The position numbers were made by a program, and so were the translations under genes. This document shows positions 1,598-25,170 of a stretch of 39,156 nucleotides of DNA, piece by piece. The stretch is from a virus (Duplodnaviria; Heunggongvirae; Uroviricota; Caudoviricetes), in IMG/VR virus record IMGVR_UViG_2695420487_000015; one strand, 5' to 3'. Numbering within the stretch: the stretch's first letter is position 1; each line of letters begins with the position of its first letter. The notes beneath the pieces were generated by a model that was given only the letters and a program-made list of their open reading frames with translations, was not told the DNA's origin and did not search any database.

Positions 1598-1673
1598 GGC
1601 CCTTTAGCTCAGTGGTTAGAGCAGGCGACTCATAATCGCTTGGTCGCTGGTTCAAGTCCAGCAGGGGCCACCA
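1598..1673 (+). tRNA. ileY: tRNA with CAU anticodon, tRNA-Ile2 (lysidine) type, 76 nt with encoded CCA
   Basis: Cloverleaf read by hand: acceptor GGCCCTT/AGGGGCC, D-arm GCTC/GAGC, anticodon loop CTCATAA, T-loop TTCAAGT, 3' ACCA. Near-identical to the E. coli ileX/ileY sequence as I recall it. Confidence 0.85.
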
Positions 1674-2088: not shown

Positions 2089-3282
2089 TCAGTTATTCAC
2101 CATTTGAGAACCACTTTCTTCCGACTCATATTCTATGCCAGAAAGCATAACCTCGAGCTCTACAGCCGTCGTGAAGCCATTCCCGCCTAGATTATGGGTC
2201 ACCTTACTGATTATCCACGACTGGTCGTCTATGACGCTTTTGAAGCCCGAGACCCTGACCGGCATTTCGGGATAAATATCTTCACGGCCGGTCGCCAGCA
2301 TGATCGAGAACTCCGCAACGCCACGCTGCAATTTATCCCACTTAGCCTGAGCCGCGCGCATCGCTTGCGCCTTTGTCGCGTAAATGGTCGTCAGTGCGAA
2401 AACATTGTCAGCCTCACCGGCCATATATTCACCCTCGCGGGCTTCCTGTTCTTTCTGCTTTTTGGCCGTGGTTTTACTGCTCACCGGTTTTGCTTTCGGG
2501 TGCTGTAGCGCCCGGAGGTGTTGCTCTTTGGGCTTACGCTTCAGCTTCACCGCTTGCTTTTGTTTCGCCGGTTTCGGGTCTTTAGTATGCAGCCACTTAG
2601 CGGTTACGCCGGTGTAAGCGCCCCGGTCGGCGATGGCAAACTGATGCCGGTCACCGTCACTGCGCTGGATGGTAATCTGAGGGATAGCTTTTCCGCTGGC
2701 CGTCGTACCACTTCCCGCTTTAAGCATCAGCAATTTACCCGCTTTGACCGATACCGCGCCGCCGTTGCGTTCCGCGAGGCGAGTCAGGAAAACAGCGTCG
2801 GATTCCTGCGACTGGTCGATATGCGGAATTTTTATCCCGGCAAGAGAGTCCGCGACGCTGGCCGTTAATTTATTACGGGCGGCTATCGCGCTGACAATAG
2901 CGCCGAGTGTGGTGTCGTGCCATGATTCCTCGCGGCGTGAATTGAGCGTTCCGCGAAAATCAGCGCTACGGGCGCGAATGGTCACCGTATCTGGCGCCCC
3001 CCGGTGCTCCACCTCATCGACGGTAAATCGCCCCTTACCAACGAGCGCGAAACCTTTCCAGCCGAGGTACAGCGACAACACCGCGCCCCTAATCGGCAGC
3101 GCGACAAGTCCGTCAGAATCATCGAGTTCAATGTCGAGCTGGTCAGCTTCAAAGCCCCGGTTATCCGTCATCGAGAGATTAATCAGCCGGTCGCTGATAT
3201 TGCCGGTGATATCTTTGCTTTCCAGTGTCAGCATAAAATCGGGCGTCAGTGTGGCCCCCGCGCCAGTGATAATATCCAGCAT
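2089..3282 (-). CDS. D: Tail protein D
   Basis: 397 aa; size and position after U/T match P2 gpD. Confidence 0.8.
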   Translation of the reverse strand: MLDIITGAGATLTPDFMLTLESKDITGNISDRLINLSMTDNRGFEADQLDIELDDSDGLVALPIRGAVLSLYLGWKGFALVGKGRFTVDEVEHRGAPDTVTIRARSADFRGTLNSRREESWHDTTLGAIVSAIAARNKLTASVADSLAGIKIPHIDQSQESDAVFLTRLAERNGGAVSVKAGKLLMLKAGSGTTASGKAIPQITIQRSDGDRHQFAIADRGAYTGVTAKWLHTKDPKPAKQKQAVKLKRKPKEQHLRALQHPKAKPVSSKTTAKKQKEQEAREGEYMAGEADNVFALTTIYATKAQAMRAAQAKWDKLQRGVAEFSIMLATGREDIYPEMPVRVSGFKSVIDDQSWIISKVTHNLGGNGFTTAVELEVMLSGIEYESEESGSQMVNN

Positions 3283-3284
3283 GA

Positions 3285-3749
3285 TTAAGCCCCCACCTTA
3301 GACAGCAGATCGCCCGCTTTACCGACCAGACTCTCGGCCTGTTTTCCGATATCGCCATAGACCGCCGCGAGCGATTCATCGACACGGGTCAGTGACAGAG
3401 TAAAGCTGATTTTTCGTGGCGACCCGTCCTCAAAAAATACCGTGCCGGTCTCCGAGACATTGCTGACAATAAACATCCCGTAAATCCAGCCCGAGCCAGA
3501 AATAAGCGGCCATGCTCGCCCCTGCTCGGCCATCGCATAAAGCGTCAGCATCGAAAACTTGCCGCCGGTCAGCTCAGGATACAGGTCACCGCTCAGGGTG
3601 ATTTTGTCCTCCCCTTCACCGAGATACTGAAAAGCATCACGTTTCCCGATGCGGGAGTTTGACGCCCAGCTATAATCCGCGCTGCGCTGCATGCTCTGAT
3701 AGGGCAACGTCTGACGCATAAAAACAAACATACCTAGTGCCAGCATCAT
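3285..3749 (-). CDS. U: Tail protein U
   Basis: 154 aa; position between T and D as in P2. Confidence 0.75.
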   Translation of the reverse strand: MMLALGMFVFMRQTLPYQSMQRSADYSWASNSRIGKRDAFQYLGEGEDKITLSGDLYPELTGGKFSMLTLYAMAEQGRAWPLISGSGWIYGMFIVSNVSETGTVFFEDGSPRKISFTLSLTRVDESLAAVYGDIGKQAESLVGKAGDLLSKVGA

Positions 3750-3760
3750 AATCGGTCTCC

Positions 3761-6190
3761 TTAGTCATGCATCATGCTTGCGCGGGCTTTGGCGCGTTTC
3801 TCACGCTCATATTTTTCTAAGGCATCCTGTAAATCATCACCTAACCGACCGCCTGGTATACCGTTGCCCGGCACGTTGATTTGATAGGTTGGCCGACTCT
3901 GGTCGATGTAGGTTTTACCGGCGGGTGCCGTGACCGGCTGATAGCTGTTGTAAGAGCTGATAGCCGGGCTATAGCCGTTCTGCGTCGCCGCACTGGCTTT
4001 CGCCGCGGTCTGGTCAAGTGAGCTGGACTCTTTGTTGATAATCCCGAGTTTTTCGAGCACCCAATCAATCCCGCTTCGCAGCTTGTTAAAGGCGTTAAGC
4101 GGCATCAGCAGCGCATCGGCCAGCGCCTGACCGAACATAACGCCAACATCACGACAACTGTTAAGCGTGTCCTGAGTCGCTTTTACCGGCGCTATCAGGT
4201 CTTTAAACCACTGCCATACACCGCGAAGTTTCTCGCCGAGGCCGTCAAAGGCGGGTACCAGCGGCGCGAACATTTCCCCGACCGGCGCAAAGGCGCTCAT
4301 CAGCCCCTCGATAACACCACCGAAAAAGGCGCTGACCGGCTCCCAGTATTTGCGAATAAGCAGCGCGCCACCGACAACCGCCGCCGCAACGGCCACGACC
4401 GGCCATGTAATCGCACCGATAGCGGCGATAACCCCGCCACTGATTGTCGTAAAGACAGCACCAAGTGCGCCAGCAGCAGCGATGATGGCGTTAATACCGA
4501 TAATAACCGGCCACGCAACAAGGCCGATTGCCCCTATAACCCCCACAACACCGATAGCCGCCGCTGAAATAACCCCAAGCGTCGTCGCCAGTGATTTATT
4601 TTTTTGTATCCAGCCATCAAGTTTTAAAACATACCCGGTCGCCGTTTGTACCAGCTTACGCAAGGATGACTCTTGCTGGTCAAACAGGTCTGTTCCGACC
4701 GCCTCATAAGCTGACTGGAACTCTTTAAAGTCGCCGCCGAGGTTGTCCTGCATGACCTTGACGAGCTCAGCCGTTTTACCGTCAGATGCTTTAAGTGTGG
4801 CGGTAAGCTGGTCCAGTTTACCGCTTGAGGCTGCAGTCATTAATACAGCAGCAGCTGAGCTTGCCTCTTCACCGAATATGGTTTTCATGTATTCAGCGCG
4901 CTGACCGGTACCGAGATTATTTTTCTCAAAGCTCCGCTGCATTTCTTTCAGGATGTTAAATATTGGGCGCGTGTTCCCCTTACCATCAGCCGTTTTTACG
5001 CCGAGCTCTTTAATAGCGTCATACGCTTTTCCCGTAGGAGCCTGTAGGCGACTTAACACAGCGCGGCTCCCCGTACCCGCCATCGAGCCTGTAATTTTGG
5101 CGTCATGCAGTGCGCCGACCATTGCGGCTGTTTCTTCGATACTGACCCCGGCATTTTTCGCCACCGGTGCGGCATAGGTCAGCGCATCACTCAGGCCGTC
5201 AAAGTCGGCGGCGGTTTTGTTCATCGTCATCGACAGAACATCACCGATATGGGCGACCTTATCGTTTGAGAGCTGGAATGCTGAGCGCATCCCCATCAAT
5301 AACCCGGCGTTCTCTTCCATCGTTCGACGGTTTGCGAGCGCCATATCAAGCGTCACTGGCGTAGCCGCCTGAATAGCAGCGGTATCACCACCGGCTTTTG
5401 CAATAATAATCTGAGCACCGGCAGCATCATCAGCCGACGCGGCTGTGTTATCACCGAGTTGACGCGCCTGTTTGCGAAGAGCCACCATATCAGCTGAATC
5501 TTTTTCAACGCCGAGAACAGCCTGAAGCTCAGAGTTTTTCTGAGCAAAATCATAACCGGGTTTCATTAGTGCAACACCGGCGAGAGTAGCTGTTGTTGCC
5601 ATACCTACCCCGGCAGCGCCCATCGAGGCGGCATTCCCTGCCAGAGCCTTCCCTGCCTGATAGCGTTTTTGTACTGCACTCAGTTTCGCCTGTTGCGCGC
5701 TGACGCGCGCCAGTGCTTCACGCTGGCGGTTAAGCTGTGCGGTCGTTTCGCTGATATTATTTTTCAGGCGATTTTCATCATTCGTCAGGTTGCGGGTATT
5801 AATCCCCGCTTTACCGAGCTCCGCCTGTTGCCGCTTAACAGACTGCGTGAGGCTGTTATATTTCGTCTGCAACCCATCAGCCGCGCGTTTCGCTGACTCC
5901 AGCACTCTGGCCTGTGCCGCTGTTGGCCGTTCCGTGTTTTTAAACTGCACCGCCAGCGCTTCAGCTTCCTGTTTTGCTTTTTCCAGCGACTGGCCGGTTA
6001 CCGCCAGTTGCGCACTGGTTTTACGAAAACCGTCTATTTTCGATGCCTGACCATTCAAATCACGCAGGGATTGCTGAGTCATGCGGATATCACCAGACAG
6101 CGATTTACTCGCCGTCTGGATCGCTTTAAAGGGTCGGGTCGCCTGGTCGACAGCTTTCAGCAGCACTTCGAGTTTGAGGTTATTACTCAT
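3761..6190 (-). CDS. T: Tail tape measure protein
   Basis: About 809 aa with a coiled N-terminus and Gly/Ala-rich hydrophobic centre. Start placed at the ATG at 6190 (MSNNLKLEV); the track's longer form begins at a TTG at 6235. Confidence 0.85.
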   Translation of the reverse strand: MSNNLKLEVLLKAVDQATRPFKAIQTASKSLSGDIRMTQQSLRDLNGQASKIDGFRKTSAQLAVTGQSLEKAKQEAEALAVQFKNTERPTAAQARVLESAKRAADGLQTKYNSLTQSVKRQQAELGKAGINTRNLTNDENRLKNNISETTAQLNRQREALARVSAQQAKLSAVQKRYQAGKALAGNAASMGAAGVGMATTATLAGVALMKPGYDFAQKNSELQAVLGVEKDSADMVALRKQARQLGDNTAASADDAAGAQIIIAKAGGDTAAIQAATPVTLDMALANRRTMEENAGLLMGMRSAFQLSNDKVAHIGDVLSMTMNKTAADFDGLSDALTYAAPVAKNAGVSIEETAAMVGALHDAKITGSMAGTGSRAVLSRLQAPTGKAYDAIKELGVKTADGKGNTRPIFNILKEMQRSFEKNNLGTGQRAEYMKTIFGEEASSAAAVLMTAASSGKLDQLTATLKASDGKTAELVKVMQDNLGGDFKEFQSAYEAVGTDLFDQQESSLRKLVQTATGYVLKLDGWIQKNKSLATTLGVISAAAIGVVGVIGAIGLVAWPVIIGINAIIAAAGALGAVFTTISGGVIAAIGAITWPVVAVAAAVVGGALLIRKYWEPVSAFFGGVIEGLMSAFAPVGEMFAPLVPAFDGLGEKLRGVWQWFKDLIAPVKATQDTLNSCRDVGVMFGQALADALLMPLNAFNKLRSGIDWVLEKLGIINKESSSLDQTAAKASAATQNGYSPAISSYNSYQPVTAPAGKTYIDQSRPTYQINVPGNGIPGGRLGDDLQDALEKYEREKRAKARASMMHD

Positions 6191-6616
6191 TCGTGTTTCC
6201 GCTTCGCTGTAGCGCTTTTTCGCGCCAGTTGACAAGCTCGGTCAGGCTCATGGGATAAAGGTCTGATGGCGACCAGTGGAAAATTACCGCTATGTCAGCC
6301 ATCAGGTCATCGACCGAGAGTTTTTTCGGGAAGGTTACGCCGCCGAACTCGGTGACAAAAAACCGACCACCTTACCGGCAAACGATAACAGGTCGGGCAG
6401 CTCCAGCGCGGCGGCTTCCTGCTCGGTCAGCGACGGCATAGTCATGCGTGGCAGCACTTTAATCAGCGCATCGACGTCAGAATTTGCGACAGATGCCAGG
6501 CTGACGCCGCGAAGGGTTCCGGCACACGGCTTTAACAGGGTGACATCGGAAATTACCTGCTCGCCGCGCTTGATGGGTTTAATCAGAGTGACGATATTTT
6601 CGTTAGATTTTTCCAT
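6183..6616 (-). other. E+E' product made by programmed -1 frameshift at T_TTT_TTG (6362..6356)
   Basis: The heptamer is in the correct phase of the E frame. The -1 frame then stays open for 57 codons (VTEFGGVTFPKK...GNTNE) and stops at 6183-6185, overlapping the T start ATG. Confidence 0.7.
6335..6616 (-). CDS. E: Tail assembly chaperone E (short form)
   Basis: 93 aa, similar to P2 gpE; contains the slippery site near its 3' end. Confidence 0.8.
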   Translation of the reverse strand: MEKSNENIVTLIKPIKRGEQVISDVTLLKPCAGTLRGVSLASVANSDVDALIKVLPRMTMPSLTEQEAAALELPDLLSFAGKVVGFLSPSSAA

Positions 6617-6678: not shown

Positions 6679-7197
6679 TTACAGACCGATATTCTGTCGG
6701 TGTGCCTCAAGCATGTCGGTACCGTTCACCATTTCGACGAGGTTAACGGTGTCGATTTCGACCATATCTTTACCGTTGAGTGTCAGCTTGTAGTACGAGC
6801 ACTCGAGCGAGATTTTCGACTCAGTGTCTTCGCCCTGCTTGGCTTCGCCGAGGTCGATTTCTTTCTGACGGCCACGGAGAACAACCTCAACCGGCACGGT
6901 CTCGCCGGTGTCATCACGCTGGTAAGACCCGGCAAAACGTAGCGGCACAGAGGCCGTACCGATGGCGGCATATAACGACCAGACAGCATCATCAGGAAAA
7001 CCGCCGAGCGAGATTTCAGCTGACAGCGCATCGTCATCGAGGCCAAGGTCAACCGAGGCTGAGCCATTCATCCCGCCGCCGCGATACTTCTCAAGCTTGC
7101 GGGTTAATTTTGGCAACGTGACGGACTGCACGACGCCGAGATAACTCACCCCGTCGATAAACAGGTTCATGAGTTTGAGCTTGCGCGGTAATGCCAT
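6679..7197 (-). CDS. FII: Major tail tube protein
   Basis: 172 aa, MALPRKLKLMNLF..., near-colinear with P2 FII as recalled. Confidence 0.9.
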   Translation of the reverse strand: MALPRKLKLMNLFIDGVSYLGVVQSVTLPKLTRKLEKYRGGGMNGSASVDLGLDDDALSAEISLGGFPDDAVWSLYAAIGTASVPLRFAGSYQRDDTGETVPVEVVLRGRQKEIDLGEAKQGEDTESKISLECSYYKLTLNGKDMVEIDTVNLVEMVNGTDMLEAHRQNIGL

Positions 7198-7209: not shown

Positions 7210-8397
7210 TTATTTGCTGTTGACGGACGAGATAAGATTCGCCAGATATTTATCGGTGATGCGCTGGCGTAAGGTCAGGTGCTCGAGTGGTGGCACAGGT
7301 GTATAGTCATAATCGATAAAAAGTTTCCCGGCCTTCAGGGTTTCTTTGCTGTTGGCCTCTTCGTCGAACCAGCACGTCGCATCGATGATGTAACCGCCGC
7401 TTTTCAGCTCGCGGAATTTCGCGTTGATGCCGTCGATAATGTCGCGAATCAGCGTCGCGGTGATGGGCTTATCGTTCGCCCACATATGCCCCTCGGCCAT
7501 TGTGTCGGCGATGACCTGTGCCGTGCGGGTGTAGTTCTCAAACTGAAACAGCGGGTCGTCGGAGCAATTACGGTTACCCCAGAAGCGAAAACCATCAGCA
7601 CGAATCAGCGTGGTAACACCGGCCTCATTCAGCAGGTCGGCATCGGTGCCTTTTTCCTGCAAATCCCAGAAGACGGACGCGCTGATACCGGTGACCTCAT
7701 TGACGCCGACGTTTGACAGGGTCTTGTGCCAGCCGGTGTCATTGTCAATTTTGGCGCGCAGACCCAGCGCAATGGCGGTCGCGTAGCTGGTCGTTGTGGC
7801 GCTGGCCGTGGTATCCCATCCGAGGAATTCAGGCCAGATAATCATGAGCTCACGCGCGCTGAAATTCTCACGATAGGCAATGACGTCAGAAATGGTTTTA
7901 CAGCCCCATGCGCTGACATAGGCGAAAGCGCGCAGTTTCTGAGCTACGGAGACAAGCGCGGTCGCCACCTGCTGAGTATCGAGACCCGGCACACCGAGAA
8001 TGCGGGGCTTCACGCCAGTGACCGCTTTCGCCGTTAACAGCGCTTTCAGCCCGGTGTATTTGCCGTTCTCATCCGTGGTGCCGATGATGTTCGAAATGGT
8101 TTGCTTCTGAGCCTCTTCGTCATCGCCGGTACCCTCTGCGACACGCACGACAACAACAACCGGTTTTGACTGGTTAGCGATGAGCTGTAAGGATTTTGCC
8201 AGGGTACCTTTAGTACCGGCTTTTGAGATGGCGCTTTGTGGATTGGTAATCAGCACCGGTTCATTGAGCGGAAATGCCCCGGCGTCAGCATCGCTGGCCG
8301 TGCAGACCATACCAACGACCGCTGTTGATACCGTCGAGATTGTGCGGGTGCCGTCGTTAATTTCGACGACCTCGACACCGTGATGAAAATCACTCAT
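7210..8397 (-). CDS. FI: Tail sheath protein
   Basis: 395 aa; size, position and sequence character match P2 FI. Confidence 0.9.
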   Translation of the reverse strand: MSDFHHGVEVVEINDGTRTISTVSTAVVGMVCTASDADAGAFPLNEPVLITNPQSAISKAGTKGTLAKSLQLIANQSKPVVVVVRVAEGTGDDEEAQKQTISNIIGTTDENGKYTGLKALLTAKAVTGVKPRILGVPGLDTQQVATALVSVAQKLRAFAYVSAWGCKTISDVIAYRENFSARELMIIWPEFLGWDTTASATTTSYATAIALGLRAKIDNDTGWHKTLSNVGVNEVTGISASVFWDLQEKGTDADLLNEAGVTTLIRADGFRFWGNRNCSDDPLFQFENYTRTAQVIADTMAEGHMWANDKPITATLIRDIIDGINAKFRELKSGGYIIDATCWFDEEANSKETLKAGKLFIDYDYTPVPPLEHLTLRQRITDKYLANLISSVNSK

Positions 8398-8942: not shown

Positions 8943-10114
8943 AAATACCCCACAGCAAAAAAACAACAGTCTTCCAACGAACCGGCTGGGGCCCAGTTTT
9001 GAATACTAATTTGAGAACGATTAGCCAGCCGAACATTCATCGCCTGACTGTAACCCGTTGTTCCCCGACATCCCATTGCCCACAGGCCACCAGTTGGGAA
9101 AGCATAAGGCAGGTTGTAGATAGCATCTTCTCCTCCGCGTGTCTGAATGGTTCCCCATTGCAGCATTATCTTCACTGGGTTATCTGTGGTTGCAAGACAG
9201 GGAATGTATAAATAGCCATTTCCACTGGCGTAAAAAGTGAAATGTGATGCGCTCAATACCTGGTCCTTTCCGGTGCCCATTGACGCCAGTGCGGCCGAGC
9301 CAAGCTGCAGGGCATTCCTGAAAGCAGCCACATTAGAAATATCAGCGCCATTAGCTGATTTCTGCATCGCACCGGCAGCTTTATTTATCGTGTCTAAGAG
9401 ACCGAGATTTTGTAAAAATAACGCCACATTGGGAATATCTGCGCCATTACGTTCTTTCGCCAGACGTGCATTCGCATTATCCATCACTATTTTTACTGCT
9501 TTCAGTGTGGCAGCTATCAGTTCACTTTCGCTTGAAACACTATTACTAAGCCGCACAAATCCCTTTTCATCTAGCGTGGCGTCAGGGTGATTACGTGACC
9601 GCTCATGTGTGCGTAGCAAACTGTCAGCATAGGCTTTTACCTCGATAACCTTGCCGTCGACATACTGGCGCGTTGACAGCACGACCGACGGGTCGATTTT
9701 TAAGGTGATCGCCGACGTGCTCGAGACAACGAGAATCATGCGAATAGTCTGCGTTCGACCGCTACCCTCAGCCAGTAACGGCTTATAGGTTTCCGGGCAG
9801 TTGGCGACAGCAATCAAAATACCAGCGTCATCATAAAGACCAATTTCACGGATGAAGAAACCACCCTCATTTTCAGGAATGATTTGCTCGGCAATAATCT
9901 GACCGGCGTCGTTGGCATCCACGCCCAGTGAGTTAATCGGCGCAATACGGGTCTGGTTAATGAGCTTTGTCTGAGCCGGGTCAGGGGTCGGCAATGTGCC
10001 GTTCCCGTCACCGACGGCCATTTGTGTGATACTCAGTTTGGTACCGAGCGCGGTCGCGTTTGCCAGTCGCGCCGCGCCCTGATTGGTCAAGATGGCAAAA
10101 TATTTTGTTGTCAT
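8939..10114 (-). CDS. H: Tail fiber protein with conserved N-terminal domain and divergent C-terminal receptor-binding region
   Basis: 391 aa, MTTKYFAILTNQGAARLANA... typical of the P2 gpH N-terminus; shorter than P2 H. Confidence 0.8.
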   Translation of the reverse strand: MTTKYFAILTNQGAARLANATALGTKLSITQMAVGDGNGTLPTPDPAQTKLINQTRIAPINSLGVDANDAGQIIAEQIIPENEGGFFIREIGLYDDAGILIAVANCPETYKPLLAEGSGRTQTIRMILVVSSTSAITLKIDPSVVLSTRQYVDGKVIEVKAYADSLLRTHERSRNHPDATLDEKGFVRLSNSVSSESELIAATLKAVKIVMDNANARLAKERNGADIPNVALFLQNLGLLDTINKAAGAMQKSANGADISNVAAFRNALQLGSAALASMGTGKDQVLSASHFTFYASGNGYLYIPCLATTDNPVKIMLQWGTIQTRGGEDAIYNLPYAFPTGGLWAMGCRGTTGYSQAMNVRLANRSQISIQNWAPAGSLEDCCFFAVGYL

Positions 10115-12698: not shown

Positions 12699-13412
12699 TT
12701 GGATAACAAGGAATATCAGAGGCACTTTGGAATAATAACTGATGAATTACAAAAGCCTTCCGATAAACATTTGAGAGCATTTACGCAGGTTGCTGACATT
12801 AGAAAGTTTGAAATTGAGATGTATTGGAAAAGAGCTACGTATTTCTGGACCATTATTGCTATTACTTTTACTGGTTATTTTGCTTTAGCCTCCGCAAATA
12901 GCTTTCCGTTCAAAAATGCATTTTCTCTTTTGCTTTCCAGTATGGGATCCGTTTTTACTCTTTCATGGTTTTTGGTAAACAGAGGTAGCAAATACTGGCA
13001 GGAAAACTGGGAAAATCACTTAGACCTGATGGAAAACGGCATAACTGGGCCGCTCTATAAAACTGTACTCTCACGACCGTCAGTCGAAGCCAAAAAAAAC
13101 GCACCTCAACTTGCGAGTACTGATAAAGATTTTATCGACAAACATATCACCGGCCCCAAAAAAATATCAGCATCCAAAATTAACCAATTAGTTGCATTTT
13201 ACTTGCTTGGCATATGGTTAATATTAGTAATGACAACAATTACTAACATCTTAAAACTATCATTCTGGAGTGAATCCACGATAGAAGTAGTGTTGAGCGT
13301 GGGAGTTTTAATTTGGTCAGCAATAGCCACTAGTTTAATGTTTTGTAAGTCAGCCACCTATACAGGAATACAGACTTCAGAGGCAAGAAAACGCTCTTCG
13401 AATTTGTTATAA
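12699..13412 (+). CDS. Cargo gene: predicted four-helix membrane protein of unknown function
   Basis: AT-rich ORF with four hydrophobic segments. Track start is a TTG at 12699 preceded by AAGAGGA; the first ATG is at 12819. Lies between tail genes V and S. Confidence 0.6.
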   Translation: MDNKEYQRHFGIITDELQKPSDKHLRAFTQVADIRKFEIEMYWKRATYFWTIIAITFTGYFALASANSFPFKNAFSLLLSSMGSVFTLSWFLVNRGSKYWQENWENHLDLMENGITGPLYKTVLSRPSVEAKKNAPQLASTDKDFIDKHITGPKKISASKINQLVAFYLLGIWLILVMTTITNILKLSFWSESTIEVVLSVGVLIWSAIATSLMFCKSATYTGIQTSEARKRSSNLL

Positions 13413-13680: not shown

Positions 13681-14757
13681 TTATTTTCGTTTGCCATAAG
13701 ACTGGGTTAGAATCGGAGTAATATCCTTAGTAAAGATATCTAGTCTTTCTTTTTCGGCTGAGAAAACATACTGTCTGGCTTGAATTACATTTTGCCTACT
13801 AATTAAGTTTGACACCTTTTCTGGTTTGCTTAGTGCAACTTTGGCACCCTTGAATATCAACGCTAAGCCCGGTGATATTGTAAAAATACATCCATTATCA
13901 AATGAAAAATCATTTTTTAAGAAAATAAAAGGAAAATCACTTGAAACAATGGCATATCCCTTAGGTGCTGAGTACAAATATACCCTACAACTACTCTCAT
14001 TGGTGATTGAGGAAAAAGGTAACGCCATAAATCTATGCATCTTTCTAAGTAAGTAAAACATTTCCCTCCGCTGTCCGCTGTCCGCATTAACTAGATACGT
14101 TCCTCCCTCCTTTAGTATAGATAACAAAGACCTCCATTCAGAACGTGGGATTATGCTCGCACCAGAAGGAATGAGATCCTTATTAGTATTCAGTACTTTC
14201 TTGATGGTGGTGTTTATATTTTTTAATTTTGGCATGGAGCCTTTATCAAAAAAATCATCCATACCTTTGTTTCTATAACATAAAAAACGGGCCATGAAAA
14301 TTGCCATGTTTTTTAAATCGTTGAAATCAATCTCATGCAAACCACTACATACTATCGAACGTGCGAATTTTTTTTCCGAAAGCTTGCCAAGCAACCAGTG
14401 TCTACGCACGAAATAATGACTACCTGAAGCATTTTTAAAATGCTCCTTTAATTTATAAAATTGCCACATTGCGTCTACAAAATCAGGGTAACAATCCTCT
14501 AGTATTTTAAAACTGTCCTCAATAAAGTTATCTCTATCCCCATCAATATAAAGAGTATGCCTTCGCTCTTGACCACAAATTTTTGTGGCATTAAGAAAAG
14601 TAATCCTTTCTTTTATTTGCTTTTTGGTGGCATCTGTTTTCACAAAACCATAAACAGTATCTTTCCCAGTCTTTGGGTCTTCAGATGTTATTTTAAAATG
14701 CCTGATATAAGTTGCAGGCAGATAATGCTGATAGTTTTGAAAAGTTCCCTTTGACAT
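13681..14757 (-). CDS. Cargo gene: DUF4238-like protein, candidate single-gene anti-phage defense protein
   Basis: AT-rich, 358 aa from the ATG at 14757, preceded by GGAGG and only 13 nt after the S stop. N-terminal HYLPATYIRHF resembles the DUF4238 signature as I recall it. Confidence 0.6.
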   Translation of the reverse strand: MSKGTFQNYQHYLPATYIRHFKITSEDPKTGKDTVYGFVKTDATKKQIKERITFLNATKICGQERRHTLYIDGDRDNFIEDSFKILEDCYPDFVDAMWQFYKLKEHFKNASGSHYFVRRHWLLGKLSEKKFARSIVCSGLHEIDFNDLKNMAIFMARFLCYRNKGMDDFFDKGSMPKLKNINTTIKKVLNTNKDLIPSGASIIPRSEWRSLLSILKEGGTYLVNADSGQRREMFYLLRKMHRFMALPFSSITNESSCRVYLYSAPKGYAIVSSDFPFIFLKNDFSFDNGCIFTISPGLALIFKGAKVALSKPEKVSNLISRQNVIQARQYVFSAEKERLDIFTKDITPILTQSYGKRK

Positions 14758-14770
14758 AGTAACCTCCAAT

Positions 14771-23952: not shown

Positions 23953-25170
23953 TTAATTAGCTTTATCAAGGCGTCCCCCCACCACCATCCGCTTGTAATT
24001 TATTGCGAACAACTTAATTTTTTCAGGGAACTTTGACGCCAAAATTATTGACTTTCTGTCTACATATGAATAAAAGGGCATTGATATCAAAATAGTTATC
24101 ATCGAAGTTAAGATAAATGTAACAAACGCACCAACGGACGGCGACGCAATGTTTTTGTAAACCCAAAAACCAACTATAGATATAACAAATGGATGAAGCA
24201 AGTATATTGAAAATGACAACTTCCCAATAAACAAGACTACATTTTTGCTCATCCCCCTTAAACATCTCCCATTCACAAAGACAGAAGCAATAATCAAAAA
24301 AGAACCAAGCGATATTGTAAACTCTGGCCATTGTATTAATATACCGCATTGAAACTGAAGGTAGAGGTAAAATTCAACCAGATCTTTATACGCAGTGCTC
24401 GCCGGTGCATACCCAACAAGATAAAGGCCAATAAACAACATAAGAAGCGATACAAACTTTCTTAACCGTCCATTATTTTCACTTATCTCGAAAGTTGATA
24501 AAAACACACCAGAAAGGAAAAGCCCATAATAAATTACATTAATACTACCAGACAAAAACATGCAAACAAATGAAATAAACGACAACCAGCGAAGAATGGT
24601 CTTGTTCTCACCAAACAGAGATATAAATCCGTATACCAATATAGAACCAAAAAACTCAATACTAATAGTCCACAGAACATAGTTATACTTTATATTACCA
24701 AAAAGCATAGCGCCAAATGAAGCATCCCATATGGCTGACACTATATTCCCATCAAAACTAAACGCAGTCATTAACGGCATTGATGCAGCGGGGCTATCCT
24801 TATCCGGAAAAAAGCCCAACAACATTATAAAATAGCAAATAATCACAGATGCTGCTACGGGAACCCCAAGCCTAATGTATCTCTTCAATGCTGATGCTTG
24901 TATATAACGTATTTCGTTATTATTTTTTTGGCAACTCAGTGACAAAACCAACCCGCTCAAAACAAAGAATAAGCTAACAGCAGATCCCCCCTTATAGAAA
25001 AAAGTAAAAGGGCTATTAAATAAATTTTCTTGCCACTTGCTATCAAACATACTGCCAGAATGCACCGAAGGTATAAACATTAAAAATGAATGCGATAAAA
25101 CGACAGCCATGGCTGCCACACCTCTTATCCCATCAAAGATTTTTACATTATTTCTCTCATTATCACTCAT
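23953..25170 (-). CDS. Cargo gene: acyltransferase family 3 membrane protein (O-antigen/LPS acetylase type)
   Basis: AT-rich, 405 aa, about 10 hydrophobic segments, N-terminal DGIRGVAAMAVVLSHS motif typical of acyltransferase-3; sits in the cos-to-A interval, the P2 tin/old slot. Confidence 0.75.
   Translation of the reverse strand: MSDNERNNVKIFDGIRGVAAMAVVLSHSFLMFIPSVHSGSMFDSKWQENLFNSPFTFFYKGGSAVSLFFVLSGLVLSLSCQKNNNEIRYIQASALKRYIRLGVPVAASVIICYFIMLLGFFPDKDSPAASMPLMTAFSFDGNIVSAIWDASFGAMLFGNIKYNYVLWTISIEFFGSILVYGFISLFGENKTILRWLSFISFVCMFLSGSINVIYYGLFLSGVFLSTFEISENNGRLRKFVSLLMLFIGLYLVGYAPASTAYKDLVEFYLYLQFQCGILIQWPEFTISLGSFLIIASVFVNGRCLRGMSKNVVLFIGKLSFSIYLLHPFVISIVGFWVYKNIASPSVGAFVTFILTSMITILISMPFYSYVDRKSIILASKFPEKIKLFAINYKRMVVGGRLDKAN

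Follow-up and report, generated by a model that had tools for sequence, protein, structure and literature searches.

Gene E of the tail operon studied here raises the question of whether it is read in one frame or in two. The gene lies on the minus strand of a 39,156-nucleotide stretch of DNA from a tailed virus (IMG/VR record IMGVR_UViG_2695420487_000015), referred to below as the window. It encodes a tail assembly chaperone and carries close to its end the slippery heptamer T_TTT_TTG, from which an open extension, E', runs in the -1 frame up to the tape-measure gene T. The arrangement is very likely a programmed -1 ribosomal frameshift of the type known for E and E+E' of phage P2, a reading that rests on the anatomy of the locus, the P2-type gene order, the Pfam and PHROG matches, the annotation of P2 itself, and the conservation of both the site and the E' frame. 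As a recoding site it is textbook material and already known, and the P2/186-like prophage that carries it, though new, is unremarkable. The elements of the locus are the following:

6335..6616, minus strand: gene E, tail assembly chaperone, with a zero-frame product of 93 residues (ATG at 6616, TAA at 6337..6335).
6362..6356, minus strand: slippery heptamer T_TTT_TTG, which has the X_XXY_YYZ phase relative to E and precedes the E stop by six codons.
6183..6356, minus strand: E' extension, 57 codons in the -1 frame (sense codons 6356..6186) plus TAA at 6185..6183.
6300..6302, minus strand: internal ATG, codon 19 of the E' extension and the RefSeq start of a separate 39-residue protein.
6366..6374, minus strand: TAAGGTGGT, a Shine-Dalgarno-like sequence 3 nucleotides upstream of the heptamer.

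Read on the minus strand, the T run extends from T6362 to T6357 and is followed by G6356, and the zero-frame codons at the heptamer are GGT (6364-6362), TTT (6361-6359), and TTG (6358-6356). Because 6616-6361 equals 255, or 85x3, the heptamer stands in the X_XXY_YYZ phase, and tandem tRNA slippage is therefore possible. The initial annotation of the window had assigned the heptamer to this phase and had described a 57-codon -1 frame open to the TAA at 6183-6185, and both statements are borne out. The first codon after a -1 slip would be GTC (6356-6354), with G6356 read twice, and the predicted E+E' product comprises 87+57 = 144 residues, with the junction ...KVVGFL|VTEFGG... and the predicted tryptic junction peptide VVGFLVTEFGGVTFPK. 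The start codon of T (ATG 6190..6188) and the stop codon of E' both fall within ATGAGTAA. E' had also been said to end on the start codon of T; an overlap of the E' frame with T does exist and measures 8 nucleotides, but the TAA lies 2 nucleotides past the ATG, not on it. The E' extension has no translation start of its own, its first ATG, GTG, or TTG appearing only at codon 19, and the frame opens just three codons before the heptamer, being closed upstream by a TAA contained in TAAGGTGGT. E. coli records contain the exact E protein under the name 'phage tail assembly protein'.

In the frameshift reading, ribosomes would start at the E ATG, and most of them would terminate at 6335 to release the 93-residue E protein. 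A minority would slip with tRNA-Phe on UUU in the P site and tRNA-Leu on UUG in the A site; both tRNAs would re-pair one base upstream, on UUU_UUU, and translation would go on for 57 codons in the -1 frame, yielding a minority product that ends within the start of gene T. By analogy with the G/GT proteins of phage lambda, the shared E part may bind the tape measure, while the E' domain may recruit the tube protein FII. Slippage in this prophage, its efficiency, and the binding roles of E and E' are what we infer here, the slip frequency presumably setting the E:E+E' ratio needed for tail assembly. In 2002, Christie et al. are said to have put the P2 fusion product at about 10%.

Taken alone, the sequence pattern is weak evidence and is not significant relative to chance. 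TTTTTTG occurs 31 times in the window, where 14 copies are expected, and mechanically defined open reading frames of at least 80 codons contain 78 in-phase X_XXY_YYZ heptamers. A -1 frame that remains open for at least 57 codons starts from 6.3% of the codons in long open reading frames. It is homology and conservation that raise the heptamer at 6362..6356 far above chance, and this comparative evidence, described below, is decisive.

Conservation of the site was assessed in 185,579 species genomes, from which the 80 best loci were taken; an IMG/VR scan gave close relatives only, and distant relatives were drawn from GenBank phages. An in-phase GG-TTTTTTG is present in all ten reference phages (10/10), and the extension behind it runs for 55-58 codons up to the start of the tape-measure gene, and the heptamer is identical in P2, L-413C, 186, PsP3, and EtG as well as in Klebsiella, Yersinia, Erwinia, and Burkholderia phages. 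An in-phase T_TTT_TTR is present in each of the 80 genome loci (80/80); it reads TTTTTTG in 78 of them and TTTTTTA in the remaining two (L023 and L026, Yersinia alsatica and Y. frederiksenii), where Leu is still encoded. Among the relatives, ATGAGTAA is the commonest context of the E'/T junction. In a set of 142 unique sequences, the heptamer is frozen at its synonymous sites (GGT 139:0, TTT 142:0, TTG 137 versus TTA 4), and the third positions neighboring the heptamer have diversities of 0.2-0.6. When the fusion was used as a tblastn query against 50,697 phage records, 417 records matched, and in 58 of the 60 records listed the match consists of two joined pieces, as expected because the product is read in two frames.

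The same picture extends to distant phages. T_TTT_TTG recurs in SopEPhi and in Shewanella and Acidovorax phages, T_TTT_TTC stands at the same place in Yersinia YenM_42.18, Vibrio MAR, and Aeromonas 32, and Mannheimia 1152AP has the lambda-type G_GGA_AAG at this position. Site, phase, and E' protein are conserved from enterobacterial phages to those of Burkholderia, Ralstonia, Shewanella, and Vibrio. The conserved feature is slipperiness in the ribosomal phase, not the homopolymer as such.

Two further observations were made among the relatives. The natural heptamer variants (T_TTT_TTA in L023 and L026, T_TTT_TTC in L171, L177, and L178, and G_GGA_AAG in L175) constitute a ready-made series for a comparison of frameshift efficiency. 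In locus L084 (Erwinia tracheiphila ICMP 5845, at about positions 1501-1930 of the locus), the E' frame continues into the tape-measure gene with 556 open codons, apparently as a result of a 1-nucleotide change near the end of E', and this could reflect a decaying prophage or an assembly error.

P2 itself is among the closest known systems. Its reference record (NC_001895) annotates E and a joined E+E' coding sequence and labels the homologous TTTTTTG as 'site of -1 translational frameshift' (misc_feature); the frameshift is likewise annotated in L-413C, PsP3, EtG, KS5, Musica, and Mannheimia 1152AP. P2 has the same heptamer in the same phase, a 57-codon extension, the ATGAGTAA junction with T, and the same position between FII and T. 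Its fused protein is 80% identical to the fusion predicted here, and the DNA of the region shares about 76% identity with P2 and its relatives. E has 91 residues in P2 versus 93 here, and the fusion 142 versus 144; the P2 fusion that we reconstructed has the published length (PMC3091744). The present prophage departs from P2 in its cargo genes and in its immunity and replication region, which is of the 186 type (CI, CII/CP76, A), but the frameshift site itself does not differ. Gene H of phage 186 (orf51/orf52) and orf23/23.5 of PsP3 show the same heptamer, 57-codon extension, and tape-measure junction, although their E homologues are longer by about 20 residues at the N terminus (111 residues in all); the 186 fused protein is 72% identical to the fusion here. 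Lambda G/GT, in contrast, uses G_GGA_AAG, belongs to a non-contractile tail, and has no detectable sequence similarity to E/E'.

The literature on these systems is in line with this comparison. A -1 shift at TTTTTTG of P2 that gives an E of 91 residues and an E+E' of 142 residues is reported in passages of PMC3091744, which cite Christie 2002 and Xu 2004 for it. Statements in PMC3091744 and PMC5009743, both of them citing papers, have it that the P2 fusion is made and is essential for tail assembly. Conservation of the frameshift among long-tailed phages is attributed in PMC5009743 to Levin 1993 and to Xu, Hendrix and Duda 2004, and the same text gives a lambda G:GT ratio of about 30:1 (a shift of about 1 in 30) and a P2 efficiency 2-3 times that of lambda. 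The lambda-type chaperone attaches to the tape measure and its extension to the tube protein, both being absent from virions (PMC5009743), and by analogy the same may hold for E and E'. The initial annotation had proposed that the locus reproduces the conserved chaperone frameshift of long-tailed phages, and this finds support in the P2 annotation, the identity to the P2 protein, and the conservation of the site in every relative examined.

The protein families and the gene neighborhood agree with this assignment. E matches PF10109 Phage_TAC_7 (tail assembly chaperone E/41/14) with an E-value of 6.4e-08, above the curated cut-off, and phrog_103 at 1e-40. PF06528 Phage_P2_GpE matches the extension only (fusion residues 106-141; 77 bits, 6.4e-22), and phrog_1756 covers the whole E' extension at 7.7e-29. 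A sequence search of the PDB with E+E' found no relative and no solved structure. The genes surrounding E and E' are the following:

8397..7210, minus strand: sheath gene FI.
6679..7197, minus strand: FII, major tail tube protein of 172 residues, directly upstream of E (PF04985 Phage_tube, 7.6e-60).
3761..6190, minus strand: gene T, tail tape measure protein of 809 residues (PF10145 PhageMin_Tail, 5.3e-44).
3749..3285, minus strand: GpU.
3282..2089, minus strand: GpD, followed by an Ogr/Delta zinc-finger gene.

The gene order is therefore FI-FII-E-E'-T-U-D, with E placed between the tube gene FII and the tape-measure gene T, and the operon is the P2 FETUD tail operon of a P2/186-like E. coli prophage. 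The stretch from the major tail gene to the tape-measure gene holds two overlapping open reading frames that a slippery sequence joins, the second without a start of its own. The names E, E', and T had been given in the initial annotation, and they prove right in view of the flanking FI, FII, tape-measure, GpU, and GpD genes and the matches to PF10109 and PF06528.

Two observations weigh against a programmed frameshift. E. coli strain 10, whose DNA is 100% identical, is annotated in RefSeq without it, and no conserved stimulatory RNA structure was found downstream of the heptamer.

The first of these corresponds to a different reading, in which E' is a separate small gene with an independent start at ATG 6302 that encodes a 39-residue 'GpE family' protein, and no frameshift takes place. 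RefSeq (PGAP) describes strain 10 in this way, with E and a separate 39-residue 'GpE family phage tail protein' (6183-6302), and so do several phage records; the 39-residue sequence is filed under the GpE family name on at least 1000 contigs in public collections, and a collection of 15 billion proteins does not contain the 144-residue E+E' fusion. PF06528, the best-conserved part of E', also begins near the internal Met. However, coding constraint is already evident upstream of that Met. Diversity at the three codon positions is 0.144/0.077/0.335 in the E' frame after the E stop, a periodicity just as pronounced as that within the body of E (0.249/0.111/0.435), and it is still seen (0.185/0.129/0.388) in the approximately 18 codons that separate the E stop from the only in-frame ATG (6302..6300). 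Among 130 unique sequences, on which the counts of stops and starts in the E' frame are based, none has an E'-frame stop between the heptamer and the internal ATG (0/130), while the other two frames are stopped in 130 and 118 of them. A stop three codons upstream of the heptamer closes the E' frame in 89/130 sequences, and 81/130 have no start codon ahead of the internal ATG.

The internal ATG itself fares no better. No Shine-Dalgarno sequence was found in front of it (TCGGTCGATGACCTG), whereas FII and U have TAAGGAG, and the Mannheimia, Acidovorax, and Vibrio relatives have Ile or Trp in place of this Met. A separate gene would moreover leave the frozen synonymous sites of the heptamer unexplained. 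By codon-level comparison, the E' frame codes for protein from the heptamer on, the ATG at 6302 is probably not a real start, and the RefSeq split into E plus a 39-residue gene is probably a systematic annotation artefact. We consider a separate E' gene very improbable.

The same fusion could also arise by transcriptional slippage, in which RNA polymerase would add one U in the T6 run and ribosomes would read the transcript normally. One inserted U does shift downstream reading into the same frame, the T6 run is a homopolymer, and a weak hairpin that leads into a U-run (6379..6362) was marked as resembling a terminator. Against this, the runs known to slip efficiently are longer than six T, and the run is never lengthened in the relatives; the X_XXY_YYZ phase is always kept, though polymerase slippage would not need it; the G_GGA_AAG of the Mannheimia homologue is not a homopolymer; and the upstream hairpin shows no covariation. 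Transcriptional slippage is thus unlikely, to the point that we give it hardly any weight as the source of E+E'. A chance heptamer followed by a chance, functionless open frame, as the abundance of TTTTTTG in the window and the frequency of long open -1 stretches might suggest, is refuted for practical purposes by the comparative data, namely the conservation of site, phase, and E' protein from enterobacterial to Burkholderia, Ralstonia, Shewanella, and Vibrio phages and the strong Pfam match of the extension.

Under a programmed -1 frameshift, the question of what stimulates the slip has to be addressed. The 60 nucleotides downstream of the heptamer fold no better than shuffled sequences (z = -0.43), and no downstream hairpin exists in P2 or its Burkholderia relatives either (PMC3091744). 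RNAalifold, applied to 29 diverse sequences, predicted a 10-bp hairpin, CUGAUGGC..GCCAUCAG (6263-6305, minus strand), located 50 nucleotides downstream of the heptamer in a 100-nucleotide stretch with a fold z of -3.5. This hairpin was rejected as a stimulator: it coincides with conserved codons (LMAD / PPSE), lacks covariation, and is too far away for a classical stimulator. The proximal palindrome CCGAnnTCGG, about 4 nucleotides after the heptamer, was set aside for its absence of covariation and its location within dual-coding sequence, and the weak upstream hairpin with its U-run was discarded for want of covariation. A covariation test of the three candidate helices gave 0.119 versus 0.117 in shuffles, a value reached by 203/500 shuffles.

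Upstream of the heptamer, a constraint of another kind is found. The AAG GTG codons, 5 nucleotides upstream of the heptamer and within TAAGGTGGT, have nearly frozen synonymous sites (AAG 127 versus AAA 3; GTG 138 versus 3 others, in the set of 142 sequences), even though Lys is usually encoded by AAA, and at another Lys position in E the codons split 77:63. TAAGGTGGT is one mismatch away from a perfect Shine-Dalgarno sequence. Sites of the dnaX or insertion-sequence type have a Shine-Dalgarno-like sequence 9-14 nucleotides upstream and/or a stem-loop 5-9 nucleotides downstream, and neither is seen here; -1 stimulators have been reported at the same upstream distance of 9-14 nucleotides (PMC5009743). 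As a -1 stimulator of this kind TAAGGTGGT was rejected: the constraint is real, but the 3-nucleotide spacing is wrong, and the motif is partly forced by conserved K/E-V residues. It is a tentative and rather doubtful idea that AAG GTG marks a non-canonical 5' element, either anti-Shine-Dalgarno pairing at an initiation-like spacing or the weak upstream hairpin. Such pairing would hold the ribosome on the slippery codons. If true, the 5' element might explain how P2-like phages reach a shift 2-3 times that of lambda with no downstream structure.

The frameshift site belongs to an integrated element with recognizable borders. The window is a segment of the E. coli chromosome, five complete genomes being 100% identical over the query. 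A 49-nucleotide direct repeat (1628-1676 and 33529-33577, 98% identical) bounds the prophage and matches the 3' portion of a tRNA whose anticodon is CAT (1598-1673, plus strand). The integrated P2/186-like element measures about 31.9 kb and contains a 186-type CI/CII/A region; ogr lies at one of its ends and int (30803..31810) close to the opposite one.

Several other loci in the window were recorded. Between tail genes S and V lies a two-gene insert of low G+C content (about 45%; 12699-13412, plus strand, and 13681-14769, minus strand), which encodes an 8xMP octameric membrane protein and a DUF4238 protein. A PADLOC search with these two proteins gave no match. The position of the insert is what we take to be that of P2 orf30, and the insert may be a cargo or defence locus. 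A 405-residue Acyl_transf_3 protein (23953-25170, minus strand), encoded in an island of 37.5% G+C beside the portal gene, is a candidate moron-borne surface-polysaccharide acyltransferase. Between the integrase gene and the att repeat, an open reading frame of 498 codons (31821-33317, minus strand; about 40% G+C) has no Pfam or PADLOC match. A second heptamer, T_TTT_TTT at 8963..8957 (minus strand), stands in phase five codons before the stop of the tail-fibre gene H, and from it the -1 frame enters the fibre-assembly gene. This was judged coincidental as a frameshift site, because an ATG belonging to the assembly gene itself (8942) overlaps the TGA of H in ATGA.

Taken together, the locus adds nothing to the biology beyond the known P2 site. 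Its chief importance concerns annotation: the true product of a very common prophage gene, which we take to be the E+E' fusion, would be systematically missing from the databases.

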